DNA of 64,000 bases from Limisphaerales bacterium (lineage in GTDB: Bacteria > Verrucomicrobiota > Verrucomicrobiia > Limisphaerales > UBA9464), in contig CBDIPJ010000015.1 in the NCBI GenBank assembly GCA_965283655.1, forward strand, positions 39,339 through 103,338, written 5' to 3'. How positions within the stretch are numbered: the stretch's first letter is position 1; the number at the start of each line of letters is the position of its first letter. A program made the position numbers and the translations under genes. Of this stretch, positions 5,221 to 63,368 are shown in pieces. The notes beneath the pieces were generated by a model. That model was not told the DNA's origin. It did no database searches and was given only the letters and a program-made list of their open reading frames with translations.

Positions 5221-5640
5221 GGGAGACAATGGGGTCGTGTCCATAAAATTTACATTTCGGTCATTGGCGGCCGCTGTGCAGGCAAATGTATAATGTATAG
5301 ACGCGACCCCATTGCCTTGCAGATGTGGCCTCCCGCGAAGCCGCGAAGGCCGCGAAGAATGGCCGGACTGAGGCTGTTTCCATCCCCACGTTTCCGCGCG
5401 CAATCCTCGCTGCCGCGACAGGTGCGGAGCACCGACAGACGATAGCCCACGGCGTCAGCCGTGGGTTCACGTCCCAGATCGAAACCAGCCCCGGACGGGG
5501 CGACAGAAGTCGTCGTCCACTGCACAGACTCTTCAACCGTCCCACGCCCTCCCACTGCTGCAGTCGTTCGTGCGCTTGGTGGTTCAGCGAAGGTTCATTT
5601 TGAAGACCACGAATTTCACGAATGGCACGAAAGGAGCGGG
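5221..5640. repeat. Composite intergenic repeat, copy A (foldback D + family C module + cacgaatttcacgaatggcacgaaa module)
   Basis: Collinear with 5924-6412. It contains the foldback 5228-5313 (AATGGGGTCGTGTCCATAAAATTTACATTT / AAATGTATAATGTATAGACGCGACCCCATT) and the family C core at 5446-5465. Confidence 0.85.
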
Positions 5641-5643
5641 ACA

Positions 5644-5723
5644 GGATGACGGGATGACAGGATGACAGGATGACAGGATGACGGGATGACGGGATGACGG
5701 GATGACGGGATGACGGGATGGGG
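5644..5723. repeat. Octanucleotide microsatellite (GGATGACR), about 9 units plus a degenerate one
   Basis: Direct reading gives ggatgacg ggatgaca x3 ggatgacg x5 ggatgggg. The paralogous position in copy B has only 2-3 units. Confidence 0.9.
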
Positions 5724-5923: not shown

Positions 5924-6436
5924 GGGGAGACAATGGGGTCGCGTCTATAAATTGTACATTTCGTCACAGCGGGCCGGTGTGCGGGCAAATGTATAATATA
6001 TAGACGCGACCCCATTGCCTTGGTTCCCGTCCCCTTTGCGGCTTGGAGGCTTGGCGGCTTATTCGGCCTTTCCCCTTCACGGAAAGTCGGGGTTTGAAAA
6101 GCCGCGAAGGCCGCCAAGAGTTGCCGGACTGAGGCTGGTTCCATCCCACGTTTCCGCGCGCAATCCTCGCTGCCGCGACAGGTGCGGAGCACCGACAGAC
6201 GATAGCCCACGGCGTCAGCCGTGGGTTCACGTCCCAGATCGAAACCAGCCCCGGACGGGGCGAAAGAAACCGTCGTCCACCGCACGCCCTCTTCACCGGT
6301 CCCACGCCCTCCCACTGCTGCAGTCGTTCGTGTCATTCGTGCGCTTGGTGGTTCAGCGAAGCCTCCTTTTCCTGACCACGAATTTCACGAATGGCACGAA
6401 ATGAGGCGGACGGGATGACAGGATGACGGGATGTCG
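5924..6436. repeat. Composite intergenic repeat, copy B, ending in a short GGATGACR run (6413-6436) just upstream of ruvB
   Basis: Same module order as 5221-5640: foldback 5932-6016, family C core 6206-6225, then the cacgaatttcacgaatggcacgaaa module. Confidence 0.85.
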
Positions 6437-8515: not shown

Positions 8516-11500
8516 TCAATCGACGAAGACGAACTCGTTCGATGAGAGGAGCACCTGGGCGTACTTGCCCCAGGGTTCGAGGGGGATCGGATCCTGGGTC
8601 GGACCGCGGAAGTCGCGACCGGCATCCCAGACCCGGATGAGGCTGCCCGCGGGGGCGGATGGTGGCGTACGATGGGTCAGGACCGGCGCCCATTTGAAGG
8701 AGTCGGTGTTCTCCGAATCGATCATGTCGACGATGAAGTCGAGGGTGTCGCCCTGAAGGACGGGCACGGAAGACAGAGCGGTCCGCACCTTGGAGGAATT
8801 CGCGGTCCATTCGGCGACGAGCCCCAGGCGGCTGGAGACGAGCCGGGCGCGGACGCCATCACCCACCTTGCCCGGGTGATCGAGTTCGCCGGACAGTTCG
8901 AGCGTGGCGTCCATCCGGGCGGTCCAGCGGCGGGTGACGGAGAACTCCTGCGAACCGCCCGGGTGCCCTTCGCGGGCGGAGAGCGACGCGTGGCTGCGGG
9001 GACCTTCGGCGGGGAACTTCGCGGCCGCCTGCCAGCGGTTGTCCTTGAACGTCGGGAAGGGGCGGAAGTCGACGATCCGTTGGCTGTTGGTGTCGAATCG
9101 GCCGGTGCCGTACGACCAGGCCGCGGCCATGGGCGGTTCGTGGGGAACCCCGACCTGCGAGCGGACGAAGGCGAGGGCCATGGCCGATTCCTCGCGGCCC
9201 GGGGCCCGTTGGAACACCCGCTGGTAGAGCCATCGCACGCGCTCGGCGTCCGATGGCAGAGCGGTGAACTCGCGTCGTGTGGTGGCGGCGCGGGCCAGTT
9301 CGATGAGGAACGCATTGTTCATCATGAACAGCGCCTGCTGCGGAACCGTGGTCTGGAAGCGTTGCGGCGAGGTGGTGTCCGGATTGGCGAAATCGAAGGA
9401 GCGCAGGATCCCGGGGAGGTTCTGGCGGTCGATGAATCCGTAGAGCGTGCGGCGGGGCGTGGTCTTGTCCTGAAACATGTCGACGGGCAGGCCTCCGAGG
9501 GTTTCGTCGAGGCTGCCGGTGACGTAGAGCAGCGAATCGCGCAGGGCTTCGAAATCGAAGCGTTTCCGGTTCATCCGCCAGTGCCAGGTGTTGGCCGGGT
9601 CGAGGCGGGCGTTGTGGTCGAAGCGGGCCTGGATCTCCCTGGAGTCCCCCGGATCGCTGGCCTGGCGATAGGTGGCCGAGCACAGGATGTCGCGGTGGAG
9701 TTGCTTGAGGGACCATCCGTTCTCCATGAACCGCACGGCGAGGAAGTCGAGCAGGGCCTGATCGGCCGGGGGTTCGGTGCGGACGCCGAAGTCCGCGGTG
9801 GTCTTGACGAGGGGCGCTCCGAAATGACGGCCCCAGACCCGATTGACGAGAACGCGTGCGGTGAGCGGGTTGTCGGGTCGGGTGAGGGCGCGTGCGAGCT
9901 CAAGGCGTCCGCTGCCGTCGGCGAAGGGCTTGCGGTTCGGGCCTTCGAGGATGCCCAGGAACTGGCGGGGGACCTGGGCTCCGCGGTTCCCGGCGTTGCC
10001 GCGCTTGAAGATGACGGGTTCCACGGCGGCGGGCTTGTCGACCAGCGCCATCGCGCGGAGAGGGGCGCCGTTGTGGGTGGCGTCCAGTTCGTCGAGCTTA
10101 CGCTTGAGTGCCCGGCTCTTCTGGGCCACGGGGACGTCGAAGAAGCGGTTGATGTCCCCGGTGGATTCGGTGATCGGCGAGTCCGGAGCGTGCAGGAACG
10201 CCCGCAGGGGTTCCTGGGTGGCGTCCGCCAGGGTGGCCGGCTCCGGTGTGCCGTTCTTGCGGGCCTCTTCGCGCGCGTCCTTCCACGCCTTGTCGGCCGC
10301 GGCCAGGATCCGACCGAACCGCGTGCCGAGGTCCGTGAGGTTGGTGGGCGACTGCTGGCGCAGGCCGGCGAGAAGGGCGGGATTGAACGGGGTGTTGGCC
10401 GGAGGATTTGCGGTCAGCGTCCCGAGGCGATTGGAAATGCCGGTCGCGAAGTCGTTGGTGTCCGTCCGGGCGAGGTCGATCCACAGGGACAGGATCGGGT
10501 GATGGGTGGTCGCCGCCTTTTCGAGTTGGCGTTTCCACGCCCCGACGAGGCCCGGGTCCATGCTGCGCGACCGGGCGACGCCTTCGGTGGCGGAGCCGTC
10601 CGACTTCAGGGTTTCGTGGGCGCAGAGGATGTACTCGCCGGCGCGATCGCGGAGTTTCTGGATCACGGCGGCGGTCTGGTCGGCGCGATAGTCGGCGAGT
10701 TCCTTTTCGCGTCGGGCGCGTTCCTCGGCGTAGAGCGCGGCGGCGTGTGGGTTGGGATTCTCGCCGAGCAGGGGCTTGTCGCCGGGTTCCTGGCTCGAGG
10801 CGAAGACGCCGTAGAGGGAATAGTAATCGGCGGTGGGGATGGGATCCGACTTGTGGTCGTGGCAGCGGGCGCAGGCAACGGTCAGGGCCTGGGTGCCGCG
10901 GAAGACCACGTCGATGCGGTCATCGATGATGTCGGCCTCGTTGTTGAGGAACCGACGACCGAGGGTGAGAAACCCCAGCGCGGCCATGGGCCATGGATCC
11001 TCGGGAGTGGCGAGGCGATCGCCGGCGATCTGCTCCTGGAGGAACCGGTCGTAGGGCAGATCCCGGTTGATCGACCGGACCACCCAGTCCCGGTAGGTGT
11101 GCGAGTAGGCGTAGCGGCGCTCCTCTTCGAACACGTATCCCTTGGAATCCGCGTAACGGGCGATGTCGAGCCACCAGCGACCCCAGCGTTCGCCATAGCG
11201 GGGCGAGGAGAGCAGGCGATCCACGGCTTTTTCGTAGGCGTCGGGGGAACGGTCGGCGAGGAAGCGGGCCATGTCCTCGGCGGTGGGCGGAAGGCCGGTG
11301 AGATCATGGGTGATCCGGCGCAGAAGAACGGCGCGCGGTGCCTCGGGGGCCGGGGCGAGGCCATGCGTTTCCATGCCAGCCAGGACGTAGTCATCCAGTT
11401 CCGTCCGGGTCCAGTCGGGTTTCCGCACCTGGGGTTTCGGTGGGAGTACCGGACGTTTGAAGGCCCAGTGGGTCGCCGGATCCGGCAGCGTCGCGGCGGC

Positions 11501-12026: not shown

Positions 12027-13319
12027 TTACTGGGGCGAACGCGGGGTCTGGGCGGGTTGGACGCGGGTCCGTTCCCCGCGGATTTCCGGCAGCAGGATGG
12101 CGGTCGCGATCAGGATGAGTCCTCCCGCAAACCACCCCATGGTCGCGGGTGTGGAATGCTGGATTACCTGGAAAGCCAGGAACGGGGCCAGCACGCCGCG
12201 CACGCCGGTCAGGAAGGTGTGCACGGACATGTAGTCCGCGACCCGATCGGGCGGGGCGAACTTCGTGACCCACAAGGCCCACGCGACGTCGCCGCCGGCA
12301 TTCGAGATCCCGTAGATGATGGCGCCCACGACCAGGCCCACGGGGGAATCCGTGGTGAAGAAGGCGGCGATCCCGAGGGCGAAGCCGACGTTGAGGGTGC
12401 AACGCAGCACGAAGAAGTTCATCCGGTCGAAGAGGCGGCCCCAGACCGGACTGAGGAGGAGGCGGGCGACGTTGGGGATGATCAGGGTGAGCAGGGCGAT
12501 TTCGGTGGCCGACTTCGCGAGGCCGTACTTGGGGTTCCCGAGGTATTCCACGCGGAGGGGCAGCATCGCGAGGTTCGCGAAGCCCATGAGCATCCAGGCG
12601 ATCAATGCCTGTCGGAAGACGCGGTCGCTGCGCACGTATTTCCATGCGTGCAAGGGATGGGCGCCCGCCGTGGCCGTCAGCGGCGAGGACGGCACCGGGG
12701 ACACGCTCCATGCGGCAGCGCCGAACGCCAGGCCGAAGAACAGGACCAACGCACGCTCGCGTCCGGGCACGGTGTCGACCCAGTGGAGTGCAGGGCGGAG
12801 GACCTCCGGCAGCCAGGAGGCAGCGCGGGGTTCGAGCCACAGTCCGGCGACGCCTGCGAACAGGATGGCCGCGCCGATCCGGATCATCACCGATTGGGAG
12901 TACAGCCGTCCGCGGCGTTCCGCGGGATAGTTGTCCTGATAGATCTGGGTCAGCAGCGGGATGACCGAGTAGAGGGTGGCCATCGCGACCACGCAGGCGA
13001 GGGCATAGAGCAGGCCCCAGGCACGGGGCGCGAGGGCGGCCACCGCCATGGCGATGGACCCGACGGTAAGGATGCGGGCGGCCGCCTGGCTGGGTCGGCC
13101 TCCGCGCTTCTGGACCTGGTTGACCGTCAGCGGCGTCAGCAGCAGGCCAACGCTGCCGCCGGCGGCCACCAGCGCTTTAGAGAGCGGGCCGGCGTCGAAG
13201 TGCCGGGTGGCGATCAGCAGCAGGAAGGTGTTCCCCGCGGTCTCGATGATCCCGGAGCAAAGGGATCGCCACCGTTCCCGGCGAACGGTGATTTCGGCAT
13301 TGGTGATGGGTGTTTCCAC
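12027..13319 (-). CDS. MFS transporter
   Basis: 430 aa with about 12 hydrophobic segments throughout. The start is a GTG whose first codons lie inside repeat-homologous sequence (see findings). Confidence 0.75.
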   Translation of the reverse strand: METPITNAEITVRRERWRSLCSGIIETAGNTFLLLIATRHFDAGPLSKALVAAGGSVGLLLTPLTVNQVQKRGGRPSQAAARILTVGSIAMAVAALAPRAWGLLYALACVVAMATLYSVIPLLTQIYQDNYPAERRGRLYSQSVMIRIGAAILFAGVAGLWLEPRAASWLPEVLRPALHWVDTVPGRERALVLFFGLAFGAAAWSVSPVPSSPLTATAGAHPLHAWKYVRSDRVFRQALIAWMLMGFANLAMLPLRVEYLGNPKYGLAKSATEIALLTLIIPNVARLLLSPVWGRLFDRMNFFVLRCTLNVGFALGIAAFFTTDSPVGLVVGAIIYGISNAGGDVAWALWVTKFAPPDRVADYMSVHTFLTGVRGVLAPFLAFQVIQHSTPATMGWFAGGLILIATAILLPEIRGERTRVQPAQTPRSPQ

Positions 13320-13458
13320 AGCCTCCTGACGTCGTCTGCTACGATTGCGGTGTTTCCACAGCCTCCTGACGTCGTCTGCTACGCTGGGCGGTTCTTCCGC
13401 AGCCTCCGGACGTCGTCTGCTACGTCAACGGGGGGTAGCAGACGAGGTGACGAGGCTG
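13319..13458. repeat. Family A cluster: P-P-P(variant)-Q' (40/41-bp spacing)
   Basis: CAGCCTCCTGACGTCGTCTGCTAC at 13319 and 13359, the variant CAGCCTCCGGACGTCGTCTGCTAC at 13400, and the inverted partner GTAGCAGACGAGGTGACGAGGCTG at 13435-13458. Confidence 0.9.
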
Positions 13459-13486
13459 TTGGGAGGGTGGCGAGTGCCATGTCCGT

Positions 13487-14611
13487 TCAGTGATCGGGTT
13501 GGGTGGCAGGGTTGATGGGGGCGGCGGAACGCGGCGAGAAGGCGCGGAAATCCTCGCCGAGGGCGGCGGCGACGGTGGCGGCGACCTGTGCCTGCAGGAT
13601 CATGGGCGAGTCGGTGCGTTCGCCCAGCGGGGCGATGCCAGGACCCATCATGGCGAGCCACATGTAGGCGGAATCGGCGATCTCGCGGCCATGGTTCTTC
13701 CAGGCGATGGGTGCCGGTCCGCGACCGTGGTCGACGGTGATGATGAAGGTGGTCTTGTCGCGGTACTGGGGCATGGACTGGCAGAGTTCCCAGAGGCCGG
13801 CGAGGAAGCGGTCGAACTCCTGGGTCGCGCGCAGGTAGCGCTCGTAGGCGCCCTCATGGGCCCAGTCGTCCGTTTCGCCAAAGGAGACGTAGAGAGCGCG
13901 GGGCTTCAGTTCCTTGATGGCATGGCGCGCGGCGTAGTTCACGAAGGTGTCGAGCAGCACGCCGCTCCACACGGTGCGACCATGTTCGACCATCTCGGTC
14001 AGGGCCGAAGGAACCTCCATGCGCCGGGTGCCGGGCGGGACGTCGAAACCCGACCAGATCGGGAGGCCCGAGCGCGGCCCGTTGAGGATCCACGGAAGCA
14101 CGTCCCAGTTGATGGCGGCGGCCACCTTGCCGCGATACGCGGGGAGGGTGTTGAGCCACTCGAAGACGTTCGTGTTGACGTTGAGGTTCTTGTCGTTGCT
14201 GTTGATCGCTGGATCGGGGATCCCGGTCAGGAACTCGTTGTAGCCGGGGTAGGAGAAGTTGTGGCCGTTGGAAACCCGCACGAGCGAACCCTTCTCGCGG
14301 TTTCCCCAGACCTGACCGCGCTTGGCGACGGTTCCCCAAAGGAAGGGCATCAGCAGGGCGCGCCGTTCCTCCGGCGTCTCGCGCCAGAGCTTCTTCCGGA
14401 CGGCGTTGGTGTCGGAGATGTTGCCATACACCTTGCTGATCATGGGTTCATCGACGCCCTGGAAGATTTCGTTCCAGCGGAGGCCGTCGGTGGTGATCAG
14501 GATGACGTTCTCCGCCTTGGCGGTGGGAGGTGTCTGGGCCTGGGCCGGACCGTTCAGGCCGAGCCCGGCAAGGACCCCGAGCAGCAGGAAAAGGGCACGC
14601 ATGTGCTTCAT
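13487..14611 (-). CDS. Secreted alkaline-phosphatase-superfamily enzyme (type I phosphodiesterase/nucleotide pyrophosphatase-like)
   Basis: Signal peptide MKHMRALFLLLGVLAGLGLNGPAQA, then VILITTDGLRWNEIF and ITVDHGRG metal-site-like motifs. I prefer the Met at 14611. Confidence 0.65.
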   Translation of the reverse strand: MKHMRALFLLLGVLAGLGLNGPAQAQTPPTAKAENVILITTDGLRWNEIFQGVDEPMISKVYGNISDTNAVRKKLWRETPEERRALLMPFLWGTVAKRGQVWGNREKGSLVRVSNGHNFSYPGYNEFLTGIPDPAINSNDKNLNVNTNVFEWLNTLPAYRGKVAAAINWDVLPWILNGPRSGLPIWSGFDVPPGTRRMEVPSALTEMVEHGRTVWSGVLLDTFVNYAARHAIKELKPRALYVSFGETDDWAHEGAYERYLRATQEFDRFLAGLWELCQSMPQYRDKTTFIITVDHGRGPAPIAWKNHGREIADSAYMWLAMMGPGIAPLGERTDSPMILQAQVAATVAAALGEDFRAFSPRSAAPINPATQPDH

Positions 14612-18058: not shown

Positions 18059-18150
18059 GTGCCGGGGATCATGGCGGCAAGGGGGGCTGCGTTTGAAGAT
18101 TGAAGTTTGGATGTGGAGCCGTGAGGGGAGTGGCCAGATTGAAGGCCGGT

Positions 18151-18185
18151 CTGGGAACTGGCGACTGGGGACTGGGAACTGCGAA
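18151..18185. repeat. Heptanucleotide tract (CTGGNNA x5)
   Basis: ctgggaa ctggcga ctgggga ctgggaa ctgcgaa, in the leuS/transketolase divergent spacer. Confidence 0.8.
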
Positions 18186-20733: not shown

Positions 20734-23646
20734 ATGGATCCGCGCCAACTGCCGGTCTGGGCGCTGCACCAGCCCATCCTTGAGTCGCTGCGCCAGCACG
20801 GTCGGCTGGTGTTGGTGGCGGCCACGGGATCCGGGAAGACCACGCAGGTGCCGCAGATGCTGCTGGACGCCGGCCTGGCGGGCGGGAAACGGATCGTCGT
20901 GCTGCAGCCCCGGCGCGTGGCGGCACGGACGGTGGCGTCGCGGGTGGCGTGGGAACGCGGCGGAAAGCTCGGGGGCGAGGTCGGGTATCAGGTCCGTTTC
21001 GAGGATCACATCGCGCGGGATACCAAGCTGTGCTTCGTGACGGAAGGCATCCTGCTGCGTTGGCTCCAGGACGACCGGACGCTGTCGGATATCGGGATCG
21101 TGGTGTTCGACGAGTTCCACGAGCGCAATCTCCTCAGTGATGTGGCGCTGGCCTTGGTGAAGGAGTTGCGCCGGACGTCGCGGCCGGATCTGGGAATCGT
21201 GGTGATGTCGGCGACGTTGGATGCGGAACCGGTGGCGAGGTATCTGGGGCCGGGGGAGTTGCCAGTTGCCAGTGGCCAGATGCCAGAGGGGAGTCGCCAG
21301 TTGCCAGATTCCGGGACTGGAAACCGGGGACTGGAGACTGGGGGTTCTTCGGCCAGCCTCCTGACGTCGTCTGCTACCTTGGAGAGCGTAGCTGACGAGG
21401 TCACGAGGCAGTGGTGCCGGGCTTCAAACTTGAATCTTCAAACTTCCAACTCACTCCCCAGCCTCCTGACGTCGTCTGCTACCTTGGAGAGCGTAGCTGA
21501 CGAGGTCACGAGGCAGTGGTGCCGGGCTTCAAACTTGAATCTTCAAACTTCCAACTCACTCCCCAGCCTCCTGACGTCGTCTGCTACGGTGCCGGTGCTG
21601 GTTTCGGAGGGGCGGACGTTTCCGGTGGAGGTCCGGTGGGCGGACTACAACGACGGGCGACCGGAGTGGGAGCAGGCGGTGGCGGCGGTGGAGAAGATCG
21701 TGTCGAACGGGTGGGAGGGGGACATCCTGGTGTTCATGCCGGGGATGGGTGAGATCCAGACGACGCTTCGGGAGTTGGGAGCGGCGCGTTTGGGTGAGAA
21801 GGTGAACCTGATGGCGTTGCACGGCGACCTGCCTCCGGAGGAGCAGGACCGTGCCTTCCAGCCGAGTGAACGTCGAAAGATTGTCGTCAGCACGAACGTC
21901 GCGGAGACGAGCGTCACGATCGATGGGGTGCGTCATGTGGTGGACGCGGGGTTGGCGCGGGTAGCGCGGTACGACTCGGAGCGTGGAATCCAGACGTTGC
22001 TGGTGGAACAGATCAGCCGGGCTTCGGCGGACCAGCGGGCAGGGCGCGCGGGCCGGACGGCGCCGGGAACGTGCTGGCGGTTGTGGACGGAGAGCGGACA
22101 CCTGAACCGACCAGCGCGGAACACGCCGGAGATCCAGCGGGCCGACCTCGCGGAAGTGGTCCTCTTGCTGCATTCGCTGGGTGTTCGTCGGGCGGTTGAA
22201 TTTGACTGGTTGGATCGTCCAGACCGGGAGGCCGTGGAACGTGCGGAGCGATTGCTGGTGACCCTGGGCGCGTTGGAGGCGGGGGATTCGGCGCACGGTG
22301 AACTGACCGAGATCGGCCGGAGGATGCTGCGGCTTCCGATGCATCCACGGTTTGGTCGGATGCTGGTGGAGGCCGGGCGTCGTGGATGTGTTCCGTCGGC
22401 GGCCCTGTGTGCGTCGCTGGTGAGCGGTCGGGATCTGATGGTGCGGATCGGTCGGGACGAAGGGCACCTGAAGGATCGGCGGGAAGTGTTCGAAGGGGAT
22501 GGAGGTAGTGATTTCCACACGCTGCTCCGGGCGCATCAGTTCGCGCGGAACAACGGATTCTCCGTCGACGCGTGTCGGCGCCATGCCATCCACGGGCAGA
22601 CGGCGCGGCAGGTGGAGGATACCTACCGGCAGATCCTGCAGTTGGCGCGTCGCGAGGGATTGTTGGCGGGAGGCGAGGACGGTGCCGGGGAGACGAAACC
22701 CGAGGCACTGGAGCGTTGTCTGGTGGCGGGATTCGTGGACCAGCTTTGCCTGCGGAAGAACCTGGGGACGCTCGATTGCGAGCTGACGGAAGGTCGCGCC
22801 GGGACGCTGGTGCGCGAGAGCGTCGTTCAGGATGCGTCGTTGTTTGTGGCGGCTTCGGTGCGGGAGGTCAGTGGCCGGGGCGGGAAGCTCACGTTGTTGT
22901 CGCAATGCACGGCGGTGAAACTGGAGTGGCTGCGCGAGATGTTCCCGCAGCATTTCAGTTCACGCCTGGAGCACCTGTACGATCGCACCCACAAGCGGGT
23001 GGCGGCGGTGGATGTGATCCGGTTCCTCGATCTGGTGGTGGATCAACAGCACCGGCGGGAGGTGGATCCGGTGGCGTCGGGCCGGTGCCTCGCGGATGCG
23101 GCAGCGCGCGGGTGGCTGGAGTTGCCGAACATCGATCATGCGGTGCAGCAGTGGATCGGTCGGGTGGAATGCCTGCGGGCAGCGGTGCCCGAACTGGAGT
23201 TGCCGTCGATGGCCATGGAAGGCCGGCAACACGCGTTGGAGGCGGGGTTTCGCGGAATGACGCTGGGGCGCGAGGCGCAGGCGGCGAACCTGCTGCCGGC
23301 GTTCCGGGCGGTGCTTTCGAAGGATCTGCAGTCCTTTGTCGATGAGTTGGCACCCTTGCAGGTAGCGGGCGTGGAAGGAAAGCCGTGGAAGCTGGCGTAC
23401 GCGGTCGACAAGGACGACGCATCGGCGCCGCCGGTGCCCGAGGTCCAGGTCAAGCTGCTGGACCTGCTGCCGCTGAAGGAACATCCGCGCGTGGCGGAAG
23501 GACGGGTGCCGATCCGGATCTGGATCCAGGACCCGACGGGGAAGCGGTTGGCCTCGACGCGGGATTGGCCGGCGTGGCGTGCGGGAGAGTATCCGAAGAT
23601 CCGGTCGACGCTGAAGACGAAGCACCCGGGGTTCCTGTGGCCGTGA
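20734..23646 (+). CDS. hrpB: ATP-dependent DEAH-box RNA helicase HrpB-like, carrying an in-frame repeat insertion
   Basis: Motif I ATGSGKTTQVP, II DEFHERN, III SATL, then after the insert VPVLVSEGRTFPVEVRW, TNVAETSVTIDGV and QRAGRAGR, plus an HrpB_C-like end (KHPGFLWP). ATG at 20734; the 20356 start in the track overlaps the TMEM14 gene. Confidence 0.9.
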   Translation: MDPRQLPVWALHQPILESLRQHGRLVLVAATGSGKTTQVPQMLLDAGLAGGKRIVVLQPRRVAARTVASRVAWERGGKLGGEVGYQVRFEDHIARDTKLCFVTEGILLRWLQDDRTLSDIGIVVFDEFHERNLLSDVALALVKELRRTSRPDLGIVVMSATLDAEPVARYLGPGELPVASGQMPEGSRQLPDSGTGNRGLETGGSSASLLTSSATLESVADEVTRQWCRASNLNLQTSNSLPSLLTSSATLESVADEVTRQWCRASNLNLQTSNSLPSLLTSSATVPVLVSEGRTFPVEVRWADYNDGRPEWEQAVAAVEKIVSNGWEGDILVFMPGMGEIQTTLRELGAARLGEKVNLMALHGDLPPEEQDRAFQPSERRKIVVSTNVAETSVTIDGVRHVVDAGLARVARYDSERGIQTLLVEQISRASADQRAGRAGRTAPGTCWRLWTESGHLNRPARNTPEIQRADLAEVVLLLHSLGVRRAVEFDWLDRPDREAVERAERLLVTLGALEAGDSAHGELTEIGRRMLRLPMHPRFGRMLVEAGRRGCVPSAALCASLVSGRDLMVRIGRDEGHLKDRREVFEGDGGSDFHTLLRAHQFARNNGFSVDACRRHAIHGQTARQVEDTYRQILQLARREGLLAGGEDGAGETKPEALERCLVAGFVDQLCLRKNLGTLDCELTEGRAGTLVRESVVQDASLFVAASVREVSGRGGKLTLLSQCTAVKLEWLREMFPQHFSSRLEHLYDRTHKRVAAVDVIRFLDLVVDQQHRREVDPVASGRCLADAAARGWLELPNIDHAVQQWIGRVECLRAAVPELELPSMAMEGRQHALEAGFRGMTLGREAQAANLLPAFRAVLSKDLQSFVDELAPLQVAGVEGKPWKLAYAVDKDDASAPPVPEVQVKLLDLLPLKEHPRVAEGRVPIRIWIQDPTGKRLASTRDWPAWRAGEYPKIRSTLKTKHPGFLWP
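21250..21588. repeat. Repeat block inside hrpB: 13 heptads, then 2 perfect 105-bp units (P-loop-Q'-CTTCAAA tract) and a terminal P
   Basis: Heptads span 21257-21347 (AGTTGCC..., GGGACTG...). P motifs start at 21354, 21459 and 21564, and Q' motifs at 21388 and 21493. The two 105-bp units are identical by eye. Confidence 0.9.
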
Positions 23647-23789
23647 GCGGAGTGGCGATGTCCTCATCGCCGTGGGGAGGGGCTTTGGGACAGGGCGACG
23701 AGGACGTCGCCGCCCCGTTCGGTAGCGGAGTGGCGATGTCCTCATCGCCATGGGGAGGGGCTTGGGGAGAGGGCGACGTGGACGTCGCC
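23647..23789. repeat. Family B double-hairpin element, 2 tandem units (78-bp period)
   Basis: GGCGATGTCCTCATCGCC ... GGCGACG(A/T)GGACGTCGCCGCCCCGTTC occurs twice, between the convergent stops of hrpB (23646) and the ABC permease (23807). Confidence 0.9.
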
Positions 23790-23806
23790 GCCCCGTTCCA
23801 AATTGT

Positions 23807-27562: not shown

Positions 27563-27768
27563 CAGCCTCCTGACGTCGACTGCTACGTTGAAGGGGGTAG
27601 TTGACGACGTGAGGAGACAAGAGGCTGGGGGCGGGCGCATCGTGACACTGCCCCCTTTTGGAAGTGATTCGGGGCGGCGATGTCCTCATCGCCATTGGGA
27701 ATGGCTTTGGAACGGCGACGAGGACGTCGCCACCCCGTTCCTTACGGGGGCAGTGTCAAGATGCGCCC
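27563..27768. repeat. Composite: family A hairpin (27563-27628), then a family B unit (27671-27741) nested in a 23-bp inverted repeat (27633-27655 / 27746-27768)
   Basis: P CAGCCTCCTGACGTCGACTGCTAC with partner GTAGTTGACGACGTGAGGAGACAAGAGGCTGG. The inverted repeat is GGGCGCATCGTGACACTGCCCCC / GGGGGCAGTGTCAAGATGCGCCC. Confidence 0.85.
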
Positions 27769-29883: not shown

Positions 29884-30127
29884 CTTCGTGGGAGGTCAGA
29901 CGGCGGAGCTGGAGGAGGCGATCCGGGGTGCGGTGGGGGGAGTTTTTCGGGTGATGCGTGTAAGGTACCCATCATTGGTGTTGGTGTGGATGCCGTGTTT
30001 TGCGAACGTTGGTTAATAACACATTTCGGATGTGGAAGGAGTTCTCGGTTGCCCCTTGGTTTGGACCTTGGAGTCATGGTGCTCGTGCCTTTCTCGTCTC
30101 AGGGAGTGTGACTTTCGATATGTCAGG

Positions 30128-32890
30128 ATGACATTCCGTGAACATGAACATCAGCCGGCTCCGGGCTGGCCGCAGGTCATTGGCTTCCTGTTGTCGCGGA
30201 TGACAGGCAAAGGATTCTGGCTGTCTTGCGGGTGGTTACTGATCAGCATTCTGGCTGTTGTCGCCCCGAGCGGATTGAGCGCTCAGCAGTTTGCCGTGCT
30301 GACCAATATCGCAGCCATCAAGCAGCTGACTCCCGAACGCGCCGCGCAAGGCCTGCCTGCCCGTATTTCCGGGGTTGTGACCGGAGGGAATCCATCGGCG
30401 GAGGACCTGTTCGTGGAAGGTGAGGATGGATCCATCTATCTCACTCCCAGCGATCAGATCTCTGGGATCGCCATTGGAGATCGAGTCGTTGTCGAGGGTG
30501 TGACGGATGCGGGGGGATTTGCCCCGCAACTGATTCCGGAACGGGTGGAACGTCTGGGTCGAGGTCCCATTCCGGCCACGATCCAGGTTCGGGATGAGGA
30601 CCTGATCGATGGCCGTCTGGAAGGACGCCGGATCGAGATGGAGGCCCTCGTGATTGCGGCCATGCGTAGGAGCGCTACAACCAATGATTACGTCCAGTTG
30701 GTCCTTGCGGAGACCAACTGGGATGTCACGGCGGACGTATGGGGCGATCCGGAGTTCGATAAGTTGACGGGGCTCCTTGGATCGCGAGTCCGGATCTCAG
30801 GCATCTTCCTGGCGGGGTACAATGCCGAGCGACAGTTGATCATGCGCCGATTGCTGGTGACGGCGGTGGATTCCGTGACGGTGACCCGCAAAGGGGCGGC
30901 CAGGATCCTGGACTATACCCGGACCCCCATTCGCCAGTTGTTGCAGTACGGAGATCATCGCTCCGGTGATGGTTGGGTCCGTCTTGACGGAATCGTGACC
31001 GCGGAGTTGTCGCCGGGTTCTGTGATGTTGCAGGACGAATCGGGTGGAGTCCGGGTGTACTATCGTGGGCCGACCGGGAGTCGACCGGGAGACCGTGTTC
31101 GCCTGTTGGGGGTTCCAAAGTCTGAATCCCGTCGGCGCTGGCTCCCAACGGGTCTTGTGGCCGATGATCCAGCCGAGGGTGTGGTGCTTTTTCGGGCGGA
31201 CGCGGGAGAGATTGCGGGGCGGGGTGAGTTGCCTGAGGCGGTCGATATCGCTGTGACCCAGTTGGGTGAGCGGGAGTACAATCAGCGCCGGGTGCGATTC
31301 TCAGCCCAGGTGCTGGCGGTTGGGTACTCGATGGTGGTCGGGCAGTTTCAAGTCACACTGAATGCAGGCGGGTATTTGTTGGAAGCCCGTGGACCGGCGA
31401 TTTCGGCGGCGGGACTTCCGCGGGCTGGGAGCACGGTATCGGTGACCGGGTTTCTGGATCAGTATGGAGACCCGGATGTGAGCCATCAGGGATTTCACCT
31501 CTACATGACCGGCGCGGACGACGTGAAGTTGGTCGAGGCGCCGCCGGTGGACCTGACGCGGCCGTTGGCCTTTGGCATCGCGGGCTTGGGCGGCTTGGGG
31601 TTGGTGGCCTTGGGATGGGCCTTCGCCCTGCGGCGGAGTGTGCGGGCCCGCACGAAGGAATTGGAGGCTGCGAACGCAGCGAAGAGCCAGTTCCTCGCCA
31701 ACATGAGTCACGAGATCCGGACACCGATGAACGGGGTGATCGGGATGACCAGCCTGCTGCTGGACACGCCCCTCAGTACAAAGCAGAGGCAGTATGCGGA
31801 GATGATCGCGAGCAGCGGTGAGTCCCTGATGGCCGTCATCAACGACATCCTGGACATCTCCAAGATCGAGGCTGGCCGGATCGAGTTCGTCCAGGCGCCC
31901 TTTTGCCTCCAGACCGTATTGGAGGAGGTCCTTTCGCCGATGCGGCCCAAGGCGCATCAGAATGGGGTCGAGGTGTCCGCCACGATTGCCCCCGGCATCC
32001 CGTCGCAGTGGGTCGGAGACTCGTTCCGGATTCGGCAGGTCCTGTTCAATCTGGTGGGCAACGCCGTGAAGTTCACCGAACAGGGTTCGGTGAAGCTCCG
32101 GGTGGGCTTGGTGGCGGCGTCGGATGCCAGTGGCGATGGGAATGGCGTGGCCGCGGGGAATGTGGTGCGGCTGCGGTTTGAGGTTCACGACACGGGAATC
32201 GGGATTTCCCGCGAGGCGATCGATCGGTTGTTTGTGAATTATGCACAAGCGGACCGATCCACGACGCGGCGTTATGGCGGGACGGGTCTGGGGTTGGCGA
32301 TCGCCAAGGAGTTGACCCAGCGGATGGGCGGACAGATCGGGGTGGCGAGCGTGGTGGGAAAGGGGTCCGAGTTCTGGTTTGAACTGCCTCTGGAGGTTGG
32401 GGAGGAGAAGGACATCCGGAATGTCGCTGTTGCCGAAGTCCCGGAACCGTCCAGCCCCGCGCCGGGAGCTTCAGCGTTGCCGGGTGGCCTTCTGATCCCC
32501 CGGGTTCTCGTCGCGGACGACAACCGCGTGAACCAACTGATGATCGTGTCGATGCTGCGTAAGTTTGGATGGGAGTCCGACGTGGTCAGCACCGGTGTGG
32601 CGGCGGTGGCGGCGGCCAAGGCCCGTAATTACGACCTGATCCTGATGGATGTGGAAATGCCCGAGATGGATGGTGTGGAAGCGACACGGCAGATTCGTGA
32701 ATCGGCCGCCGGATCGATTCATTCGCGGGTTTGCATCATTGCCCTGACAGCGCACGCCATGGCGGGAGATCGGGAGCAATTCATGGCGGCGGGCATGGAT
32801 GAGTGTATCACCAAGCCGGCGACCTTGGCGCAGTTGGCTTCGAAGCTGAAACGCTTCCATCCGAGCGTGAACAGTCGACGTGGCGGGTGA
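30128..32890 (+). CDS. Hybrid sensor histidine kinase / response regulator with a large periplasmic sensor region
   Basis: H-box [18 protein letters not shown]; HATPase boxes [17 protein letters not shown] and [10 protein letters not shown]; C-terminal receiver [10 protein letters not shown]...[13 protein letters not shown]. Confidence 0.9.
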
Positions 32891-32909
32891 GGGAACAGGA
32901 CCGGGAGAT

Positions 32910-34045: not shown

Positions 34046-34298
34046 GTGAGACCTTGAGCTTTGTTGTCTCCGGGAGTGGCCGTCCCGGAGGCTGCGGCTT
34101 CTTACCCGGCAGATGGGCGGAAGGTTTCAGGGGGAGTTTGAAGATTTCAGTTTTGAGTTGGGGGAGTATCCAGTTGCCAGATGCCAGAAGCCTCGGGGAA
34201 CTGGAGGCTTTCCCGCCGGGTGGGGGCATCCGGCCTTCAGAACGGGATCCCACTTGCGGGATGATGGATTCCGGAATTGGGAACCGCGGGTTCTTCCA

Positions 34299-62103: not shown

Positions 62104-62566
62104 CCAACCGCATCGCGGTTGTGGCCAACACCGAGTCTCGAAGGAGAAGGTCATCTCCCGACAAGCACGCCGGGGAGGACAGCGAACAGCGATGCGTTTC
62201 GCTCGGCGAGCTTCGTGCCTCCGCGTGAGAAAAGTCTGGGTTCCACAATCCTCACACCAAGACGGGAGGATGCGCAGGAACCCCGGAGTTGTTTCACGCA
62301 GAGGCGCCGAGAACGCCGAGGGGGAGTCGGTTGTTGCAGTTGGTTTGCCCTGTGCGCTTCCAACGCCGAGCCAAACTCGAAACGCTCCGCTCCACCACAG
62401 CGTCTGGGGTCCGGATTCGAAGAGGAAAAGCGCATGATGTGAGTCCCTACGCCGAGGTCCCACAGGTGCGGAGCACCGACAGATGATAGCCCACGGCGTC
62501 AGCCGTGGGTCCCAGATCCAAAAGCCTCATTAGCCCCAGCGGGGCGACAGACGCGGAAGGCTCCAA
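62104..62566. repeat. 463-bp composite direct repeat, copy 1 (ends with the family C module)
   Basis: Collinear with 62906-63368 (802-bp offset). It contains tttcacgcagaggcgccgagaacgccgaggggg and the family C core at 62490-62509. Confidence 0.9.
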
Positions 62567-62905: not shown

Positions 62906-63368
62906 CCAACCGCATCGCGGTTTTGGCCCCCACCGATCCTCGAAGGAGCAGGCAATCTCCCGACAAGCACGCCGGGGAAGACATGGAACAGTGATGCGTT
63001 TCGCTCAGCGGGCTCCGTGCCTCGGCGTGAGAAAAGTCTGGGTTCCACAATCCTCACACCAAGACGCGATGATGCGCATGAACCCCGGAGTTGTTTCACG
63101 CAGAGGCGCCGAGAACGCCGAGGGGGAGTCGGTTGTTGCAGTTGGTTTGCCCTGTGCCCTTCCAACGCCGAGCCAAACTCGAAACGCTCCGCTCCGCCAC
63201 AGCGTCTGGGGCCCGGATTCGAAGAGGAAAAGCGCATGACGTGAGTCCCTACGCCGAGGTCCCACAGGTGCGGAGCACCGACAGATGATAGCCCACGGCG
63301 TCAGCCGTGGGTCCCAGATCCAAAAGCCTCATTAGCCCCAGCGGGGCGACAGACGCGGAAGGCTCCAA
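62906..63368. repeat. 463-bp composite direct repeat, copy 2
   Basis: See copy 1. A partial third copy of one sub-module lies at about 62745-62830. The family C core is at 63292-63311. Confidence 0.9.

Follow-up and report, generated by a model that had tools for sequence, protein, structure and literature searches.

Intergenic repeat modules form an in-frame insert in the HrpB helicase gene of a verrucomicrobial bacterium

We analysed a 64,000-nucleotide stretch of DNA from a Limisphaerales bacterium of the Verrucomicrobiota (contig CBDIPJ010000015.1, positions 39,339 to 103,338; hereafter, the window), in which the predicted helicase gene hrpB carries an insert made solely of modules that also build intergenic arrays in the same window. 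The insert lies at the junction of the helicase domains RecA1 and RecA2, is open in the hrpB frame only and differs in length among close relatives, all recovered alleles being in frame. The explanation that we consider likely is that selfish or slippage-prone repeat DNA came to lie in an insertion-tolerant surface linker of HrpB, where it has since been passed on as a loop that is translated and probably disordered.

The hrpB gene and its insert

The gene runs on the + strand from an ATG at 20734 to a stop codon at 23644-23646. Motifs GSGKTT, DEFHE and SATL are encoded upstream of the insert and VPVLVSEGRTFPVEVRW downstream. Pfam domains DEAD, Helicase_C, HA2_N, HA2_C and HrpB_C were all identified in the window protein, which also matches solved HrpA and HrpB structures (the HrpB entries 6EUD and 6HEG of the PDB, with E ~1e-83). 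The HrpB model TIGR01970 scored 542.1 bits, slightly below its cut-off of 546.15, because the insert breaks the match into three stretches. By these sequence criteria, the gene is hrpB, encoding a DEAH/RHA ATP-dependent helicase.

The interval between ...ARYLG and VPVLV (21250-21588) comprises 339 nucleotides (nt), or 113 codons, with zero stops, and is built from the following modules, in which P denotes the motif CAGCCTCCTGACGTCGTCTGCTAC and Q' the motif GTAGCTGACGAGGTCACGAGGCAG:

20734-23646, + strand: hrpB coding sequence, a single uninterrupted open reading frame (ORF) of 970 residues
21253-21343, + strand: block of 13 heptamers, in register, as read from the sequence
21344-21352, + strand: flank preceding P, GTTCTTCGG, of the TTCTTCC type that also precedes P in intergenic arrays (compare 13385-13399 and 34288-34298)
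21353-21457, + strand: first 105-bp unit (P at 21354-21377, 10-nt loop, Q' at 21388-21411, CTTCAAA tract at 21422-21451, ACTCACTCC)
21458-21562, + strand: second 105-bp unit, 100% identical to the first (P at 21459-21482, Q' at 21493-21516, CTTCAAA tract at 21527-21556)
21563-21587, + strand: terminal third P, immediately followed by the native VPVLV codons

The P/Q' repeat is an imperfect palindrome of ~24 bp, its left arm P ending in CTAC and its right arm Q' starting with GTAG. Tandem Repeats Finder called the 105-bp array as 105 nt x 2.2 at 100% identity, and the heptamer block as 7.3 + 3.9 copies that are imperfect, with 70-75% matches. The block consists of an AGTTGCC-type tract (21257-21307) followed by a GACTGGR-type tract (21313-21343), the latter being approximately the reverse complement of the former; the predicted fold pairs both tracts as a hairpin. 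The predicted translation includes the junction peptides ...ARYLGPGELPVASGQ... and ...SLLTSSATVPVLVSEGR and is of low complexity, rich in S, L, T, A and G. The GC content at third codon positions (GC3) is 0.67 in the insert vs 0.81-0.86 in the flanks, and that at first positions (GC1) is 0.52 vs 0.72-0.73. The insert is thus without the codon-position GC signature of its host gene, and its composition is that of non-coding DNA.

The original prediction, made from the sequence of the window, had described an uninterrupted helicase ORF with a 339-nt, 113-codon insert of these modules, and all its descriptive elements were reproduced. The extent it gave to the insert, 21250-21588, was confirmed except at the left edge, where the first two to four codons (P, G, E) are likely native, as read from insert-free orthologs (YLGP-E-VPIL); this suggests a true insert of ~327-333 nt that starts near 21256-21262.

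Lineage specificity and length variation of the insert

Neighbour-joining analysis of 826 gap-free columns groups the insert-bearing proteins together: the window protein clusters with P0001 and P0002, and P0003-P0007 belong to the same clade. Members of the sister clade (P0008-P0023, 83-87% identical) read YLGx-E/D-VPIL, with a linker of 3 residues, and in this clade and in more distant HrpB and HrpA proteins alike the site holds 2-8 residues, 2-3 being usual. When E. coli HrpA is aligned with the window protein, it covers residues 3-171 and 286-648 of the latter and has just 2 residues of its own between these segments. By these comparisons, alignment with HrpB orthologs having been proposed as a check in the original prediction, the insert is a lineage-specific insertion and not an ancestral domain.

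Linker lengths range from 3 to 115 residues in 124 verrucomicrobial HrpBs (the window protein and 123 homologs), that of the window being the longest, and members of the same 90% clusters differ in linker length:

P0002: 26 residues
P0134: 40 residues
P0001: 42 residues
P0133: 54 residues
P0127: 72 residues
window: 114 residues

Every allele of this series of 26-114 residues is open and in frame. The shorter linkers are heptamer tracts read as 7-residue repeats (QLPVASG / QLPEGSS), and they finish in the canonical flank that precedes P, AACTCCGCC, without P itself. Heptamer tracts homologous to that of the window, of other lengths, are present in the relatives L001, L002 and L076.

The P/Q' block was recovered a second time, in contig L075, which originates from a different Joint Genome Institute (JGI) sample, begins inside the array and has an hrpB gene with 92.5% nucleotide identity to that of the window. 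P occurs in L075 at positions 50 and 155, that is, with the same 105-nt period, and is then found three times at a 27-nt period; this three-P run (155-233) has a period of 9 codons, reads PSLLTSSAT x3 and represents a unit type not seen in the window. This run adjoins VPVLVSEGR, and the hrpB frame is the only one in which it is open (...SLLTSSATPSLLTSSATPGLLTSSATVPVLV). Recovery of these units at this junction in L075 shows that the P/Q' block is no artefact of the window assembly. In the nucleotide tree, the window, L075 and the pair (L001, L076) split almost as a trichotomy, at a divergence of 7-7.5%; the P/Q' block has therefore either been long persistent or been lost in L001/L076. The two units of the window are 100% identical to each other vs ~94-96% identical to the units of L075, a pattern that, on the sequence comparison, is indicative of concerted evolution or repeated re-amplification of the units.

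A deeper sub-clade, to which L004, L005, L007 and L073 belong, carries a homologous insert of 32-37 residues; it contains one P, read in the frame used in the window (peptide GDASLLTSAAT). The hrpB gene of L074 (P0056, ~65% identical) contains, at 10505-10663, a different palindromic insert at the same site, consisting of TCTTAA/TCGTAA hexamers that also make an intergenic tract at 2505-2548 of L074; its translation is LNRNPNLNLN...KIKSKIK. Repeat DNA has therefore been taken up at this site on more than one occasion. Scans of metagenome contigs with gapped patterns for the P-to-VPVLV and YLG-to-heptamer junctions gave no match, though L001 and L002 come from JGI samples, so that either the collection or the gapped patterns were uninformative. 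An apparent contig break at the repeat in P0035 (L072) was likewise uninformative, as that contig starts 260 nt downstream.

Reading frame and selection

Of the six frames of the insert, that of hrpB is the one without stops, each of the remaining five containing 2-7; when the insert was shuffled by mononucleotides, only 2.2% of the shuffles kept the hrpB frame open. Most frames of the intergenic arrays are interrupted by stops, and in the 811-nt array every frame has 6-11 of them. The repeat periods differ correspondingly, being 105, 27 and 21 nt within the gene vs 40, 65 and 161 nt outside genes. Frame preservation is thus real and recurrent. The flanking codons have a ratio of nonsynonymous to synonymous substitution rates (dN/dS) of 0.050-0.062 in all comparisons, and single-base changes on the window's own branch number 55 synonymous vs 6 nonsynonymous; judging from these substitutions, hrpB is intact and under strong purifying selection. 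Selection for translatability had been proposed in the original prediction, and the contrast in periods together with the dN/dS of ~0.05 agrees with it.

Predicted structure of the protein and of the hairpins

An AlphaFold2 model of the window protein, based on a 55-sequence alignment, had a mean predicted local distance difference test score (pLDDT) of 75.9. Residues 177-282 fell below 35, and lie between helix 165-171 and strand 288-291, which places the linker between the last RecA1 helix and the first RecA2 strand. The insert is accordingly predicted to be a disordered loop at the RecA1/RecA2 junction, as had been anticipated from the sequence. A pLDDT below 50 was also obtained for residues 397-469 (~21922-22140), a highly conserved RecA2 segment with motifs V and VI; the model is imperfect here, and its poor quality probably reflects the shallow alignment or the long insert, not biology. 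Pfam identified no domain over the insert.

At the RNA level, the hrpB P/Q' hairpin is predicted to fold at -35.8 kcal/mol (z = -4.5). The original prediction had suggested that two such hairpins in mid-gene could act as an internal attenuator; their stability stood (-36 kcal/mol), but the attenuator has no support, as neither a U tail nor a terminator-like site was found, and an intrinsic terminator was rejected. An intein or intron was also considered and discarded, there being no motif and no Rfam match.

The repeat family within the window

The P motif has 22 matches in the window (with up to 3 mismatches) vs 0 expected. The modules of the family occupy five or more loci within the window, and all modules of the insert recur in intergenic arrays, which bears out the original view that an intergenic repeat family has been inserted in frame. 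Outside hrpB, the following arrays were found:

13309-13460, + strand: intergenic array of three P at a 40/41-bp period followed by one Q', between MFS transporter and phosphodiesterase-like genes
27563-27620, + strand: single intergenic P/Q' hairpin downstream of miaE, absent from the relative L003
34293-35103, + strand: intergenic array of 161 bp x 5 (P, Q', a second P-type element, CTTGAAA tracts), absent from L003
50429-50658, + strand: intergenic array of 65/66 bp x 3.5, with a Q' variant identical to the Q' of hrpB

The intergenic periods of 40, 65 and 161 bp were obtained with Tandem Repeats Finder. Further AGTTGCC and GACTGG heptamers are present at 18148-18185 and 34165-34192, the AGTTGCC heptamers at the latter site preceding the 161-bp array, in which the CTTCAAA/CTTGAAA tract is also found again. 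L003, a relative with 90% nucleotide identity, lacks the 161-bp array as well as the 27563 hairpin and the hrpB P/Q' units; the family has therefore been expanding recently in the lineage of the window. P is on the + strand at all five P-family loci of the window, throughout which the GC skew is strongly positive (+0.08 to +0.21 per 8 kb, +0.16 overall). The P element may have a replication-strand bias, for which five loci are weak evidence.

The repeat family beyond the window

A scan of one genome per GTDB species found exact matches to CAGCCTCCTGACGTCGNCTGCTAC at at least 64 loci, in metagenome-assembled genomes (MAGs) labelled Opitutaceae, Opitutae, Verrucomicrobiales, Verrucomicrobiae and Limisphaerales; among the matches listed, MAGs with the labels Opitutaceae, Verrucomicrobiales and Limisphaerales share an identical 24-nt P core. 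The usual layout is heptamers, AACTCCyTCCC, P, a loop of 3-12 nt, Q' and again heptamers. A single P arm is not palindromic, and the 24-bp stem is formed by P against Q', with fixed C-C and G-G mismatches. Across 33 distinct hairpins, most of the 24 P/Q' positions pair; most hairpins have mismatches at position 8 (C-C, 22/33) and at position 13 (G-G, 23/33), while positions 2, 17 and 19 are usually unpaired as well. The CTAC end of P and the GTAG start of Q' are seen in 27 of these 33 hairpins. The predicted RNA fold energies of the family range from -30 to -42 kcal/mol (z = -2.4 to -6.0).

Among 88 P copies examined, only those in hrpB are convincingly genic when GC3 filters are applied on both sides; before such filtering, screens for genic P were confounded by long spurious ORFs in GC-rich DNA. 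Candidate genic copies in L029 and L031 were set aside, as their ORFs look to be in the wrong frame.

No match to the P/Q' hairpin reached the gathering thresholds of Rfam, and lowering the threshold to E<=10 on 21200-21650 yielded chance microRNA-like matches only. P had no match in a scan of viral contigs, and a literature search for the P motif and for Verrucomicrobia heptanucleotide repeats turned up nothing relevant. The P/Q' family, which extends across several verrucomicrobial orders, is apparently undescribed. A search for a transposase of the type associated with repetitive extragenic palindromes (REPs), known as RAYT, or for any other transposase near the arrays was negative in the window and in 64 fetched loci of 2-8 kb, a search that stopped short of whole genomes. 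ORFs resembling RAYT between oppositely oriented repeats were limited to two unconvincing ones in L019. Pfam analysis of ten genes flanking four intergenic arrays returned housekeeping-type domains for 7, no match for 3 and transposase domains for 0.

Many of the P copies (L014, L019, L027, L028, L039, L044, L051, L059 and L071) belong to a MAG labelled Cyanophyceae (JBIKWS01). Its contig L014 is syntenic with window positions 13280-13520 and, at the site orthologous to the 13309-13460 array, has a single P with Q' vs three P in the window. The JBIKWS01 MAG is probably closely related to the verrucomicrobial organism of the window and either mislabelled or mis-binned.

Origin of the insert

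We infer that the ancestor of the insert-bearing clade gained repeat DNA at the linker site, where its entry would have been due either to mobility of the family itself or to other copies acting as partners in ectopic recombination or as templates for repair. The heptamer tracts and P/Q' units would subsequently have grown and shrunk through replication slippage or unequal recombination between direct P copies; such slippage or unequal exchange would explain why the arrays all end in a partial unit. Purifying selection on HrpB would discard frame-shifting or stop-bearing variants, and because only one frame of six is open under this selection, the periods within the gene would be limited to the 105, 27 and 21 nt observed, as opposed to the 40, 65 and 161 nt outside. 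The encoded segment rich in S, L, T, A and G is most likely a passive disordered loop, its translation being putative, and no specific function of the insert is needed.

Several observations weigh against this explanation. P is near-perfect in L007 (24/24) and L073 (23/24) despite a synonymous divergence of ~0.8-1.0 from the window gene, and the sister lineages L004 and L005 carry decayed P copies. The near-perfect copies suggest gene conversion from other copies or a constraint at the DNA or RNA level, neither of which is predicted by strict neutrality; re-insertion is a further candidate cause. The linker series is biased by ascertainment, in that frameshifted alleles would not show as full-length database proteins. 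Finally, the search for a mobilising enzyme close to the arrays of the window and the 64 loci was negative, as would not be expected if the family moved by an enzyme of its own encoded there.

The same near-perfect P copies, the persistence of the insert in two lineages ~7.5% apart at the nucleotide level and the significant stability of the hairpins (z = -4.5) are what could be expected if the insert had been co-opted, either with the disordered loop of 110 residues tuning HrpB through inter-domain flexibility or partner binding, or with the two mRNA hairpins of -36 kcal/mol regulating translation or mRNA stability in mid-gene. We regard co-option as unlikely, since both the length and the sequence of the insert vary freely in close relatives (26-114 residues), some of which are without P/Q', and since the sister clade works with 3 residues. 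The hairpins have no U tail or terminator-like site, the peptide is of low complexity with a pLDDT below 35, and in a collection of 5.8 billion sequences no other protein has three exact 5-residue words in common with the 82-residue P/Q' part of the insert translation.

A more speculative scenario, to which we give little credence, is that heptamers and P/Q' together constitute a composite element, an undescribed structured or mobile family of several Verrucomicrobiota orders whose 24-nt core is kept by a conserved protein or transposase partner. The HrpB linker would then be either a recurrent target or part of a functional pairing in which the helicase acts on the hairpins or the insert autoregulates hrpB. 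Such a target or partner would account for the near-perfect P in L007 and L073 and for the independent palindromic hexamer insert in L074.

A tract of 13 heptamers inside an ORF, polymorphic in length among close relatives, could in principle render hrpB phase-variable, with 7-nt slippage toggling the frame. This is very improbable: the heptamers are imperfect (70-75% matches), which disfavours slippage, and purifying selection on hrpB is steady. Of the marks of a contingency locus, neither a perfect tract nor an out-of-frame allele was seen, all recovered alleles being in frame in a sample that is biased against out-of-frame ones.

It is equally improbable that repeat reads were mis-assembled into hrpB or that the gene is a recent pseudogene open by chance. 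Identical 105-bp units and a dispersed family are prone to mis-joining, and the exact copy number, taken from the assembly, is provisional; however, units, junction and frame are all the same in L075, which represents a different sample and population. A pseudogene is hard to reconcile with a frame open over 2.9 kb and the 55 synonymous vs 6 nonsynonymous changes on the window branch, and a chance opening with the 2.2% of shuffled inserts that are open in the hrpB frame.

That an ancestral HrpB domain was lost elsewhere is effectively refuted: every member of the P0001-P0007 clade has some insert, but the sister clade and distant HrpB/HrpA proteins have 2-8 residues at the site, and the insert is identical in sequence to intergenic repeats, has the GC3 of non-coding DNA and contains no Pfam domain.

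Other elements in the window

A second, unrelated palindromic repeat family (GGCGACGAGGACGTCGCCRCCCC) is present in 9 copies vs 0 expected, at 23646-23798 and also at 27671, 27714, 28911, 41431, 41513, 47112 and 47154. A 78-bp x 2 tandem repeat of this family begins at the hrpB stop codon and is absent from L001 and L003. The syntenic region of L003 also lacks a stretch of ~3 kb (29921-32897) within which a gene for a hybrid histidine kinase / response regulator is located (30032-32890; HisKA, HATPase_c and Response_reg domains).

Rfam identified five copies of the Acido-Lenti-1 RNA, with scores of 39.5-53.6 bits vs a gathering score of 37:

356-401, + strand: Acido-Lenti-1 RNA
5420-5465, - strand: Acido-Lenti-1 RNA
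6180-6225, - strand: Acido-Lenti-1 RNA
62464-62509, - strand: Acido-Lenti-1 RNA
63266-63311, - strand: Acido-Lenti-1 RNA

Four of these form two pairs ~760-800 nt apart, and the pair at 5.4-6.4 kb lies amid 8-mer arrays of GACGGGAT (x10 at 5640-5720 and x3 at 6409-6433). The copies look like duplicated segments of another repeated element.

Comparison with known systems

The phenomenon as such is already known from Rickettsia palindromic elements (RPEs) and from the intragenic GTAG REPs of Opitutus terrae, including those in HrpA. RPEs were reportedly found by Ogata et al. in 2000 to be inserted in frame in Rickettsia protein-coding genes. As in the hrpB case, they are a dispersed palindromic family that is also intergenic, and they lie in frame in housekeeping genes without disrupting them, at positions where the fold tolerates insertion; orthologs without the insert exist, and in hrpB, too, the host ORF is open and orthologs are free of the insert. 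In-frame palindromic repeat inserts are established for RPEs (reviewed in PMC10969869). In contrast to the hrpB insert, RPEs are single elements of ~100-150 bp that encode their own conserved peptide and occur in dozens of genes per genome, whereas P is clearly genic in 1/88 copies examined and is part of a tandemly amplified composite with heptamer tracts. The hosts differ as well, a large free-living verrucomicrobial genome here as opposed to a reduced intracellular one.

The closest parallel in the same phylum comes from the intragenic GTAG/CGTC REPs described by Di Nocera et al. 2013 (PMC3733652), among which GTAG elements are most numerous in O. terrae. There they are inserted at two sites of HrpA, further insertions are listed for repair genes and RNA helicases, and nucleic-acid enzymes are noted as preferred hosts; the inserts are mostly 7-30 residues long, with clusters of up to 82 residues (PMC3733652). 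The two cases share the phylum, the helicase superfamily, the CTAC/GTAG tags at the arm ends and the encoding of extra residues by dimers and clusters. The insert in hrpB, at ~110 residues, is longer. The O. terrae families GTAG-17 to GTAG-20 encode other peptides (VGPALAAG, GTGVPPV), and the table of PMC3733652 has no SLLTS- or ADEVT-like peptide; the P/Q' family is therefore distinct. Compared with REP/RAYT systems in general, the tags are present, but a lone P arm is not palindromic and no RAYT was found in the window or the 64 loci.

Cyanobacterial short tandemly repeated repetitive (STRR) sequences are tandem heptanucleotide repeats dispersed in intergenic DNA, and resemble the heptamers described here in location and, in part, in sequence (ACTGGGG-type). 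The likeness is one of description only, in another phylum, and here the heptamers flank a palindrome within a composite unit.

In-frame tandem repeats are also said to be characteristic of Borgs (Schoelmerich et al. 2023), and the original prediction had drawn attention to this resemblance, which is a loose one. The likeness holds for perfect units divisible by 3 within ORFs (105 nt x 2.2, and 27 nt in L075), for the predicted disorder of the encoded segment and for non-divisible periods outside. It fails for the origin of the units: Borg repeats are of local origin and unique to each locus, whereas the units in hrpB are copies of a palindromic family dispersed through the genome and the phylum, and sit in a core gene of a bacterial chromosome.

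What stands out in hrpB, against this background, is the contrast, within a single repeat family, between copies inside and outside a gene, together with the series of alleles at an inter-domain helicase linker and the apparently undescribed P/Q' family. Comparison of a single family within and outside a gene amounts to a natural experiment in which non-coding repeat DNA becomes protein sequence, and a RecA1/RecA2 linker of HrpB that can take 3 to 115 residues is of use for the engineering and tagging of DEAH helicases.

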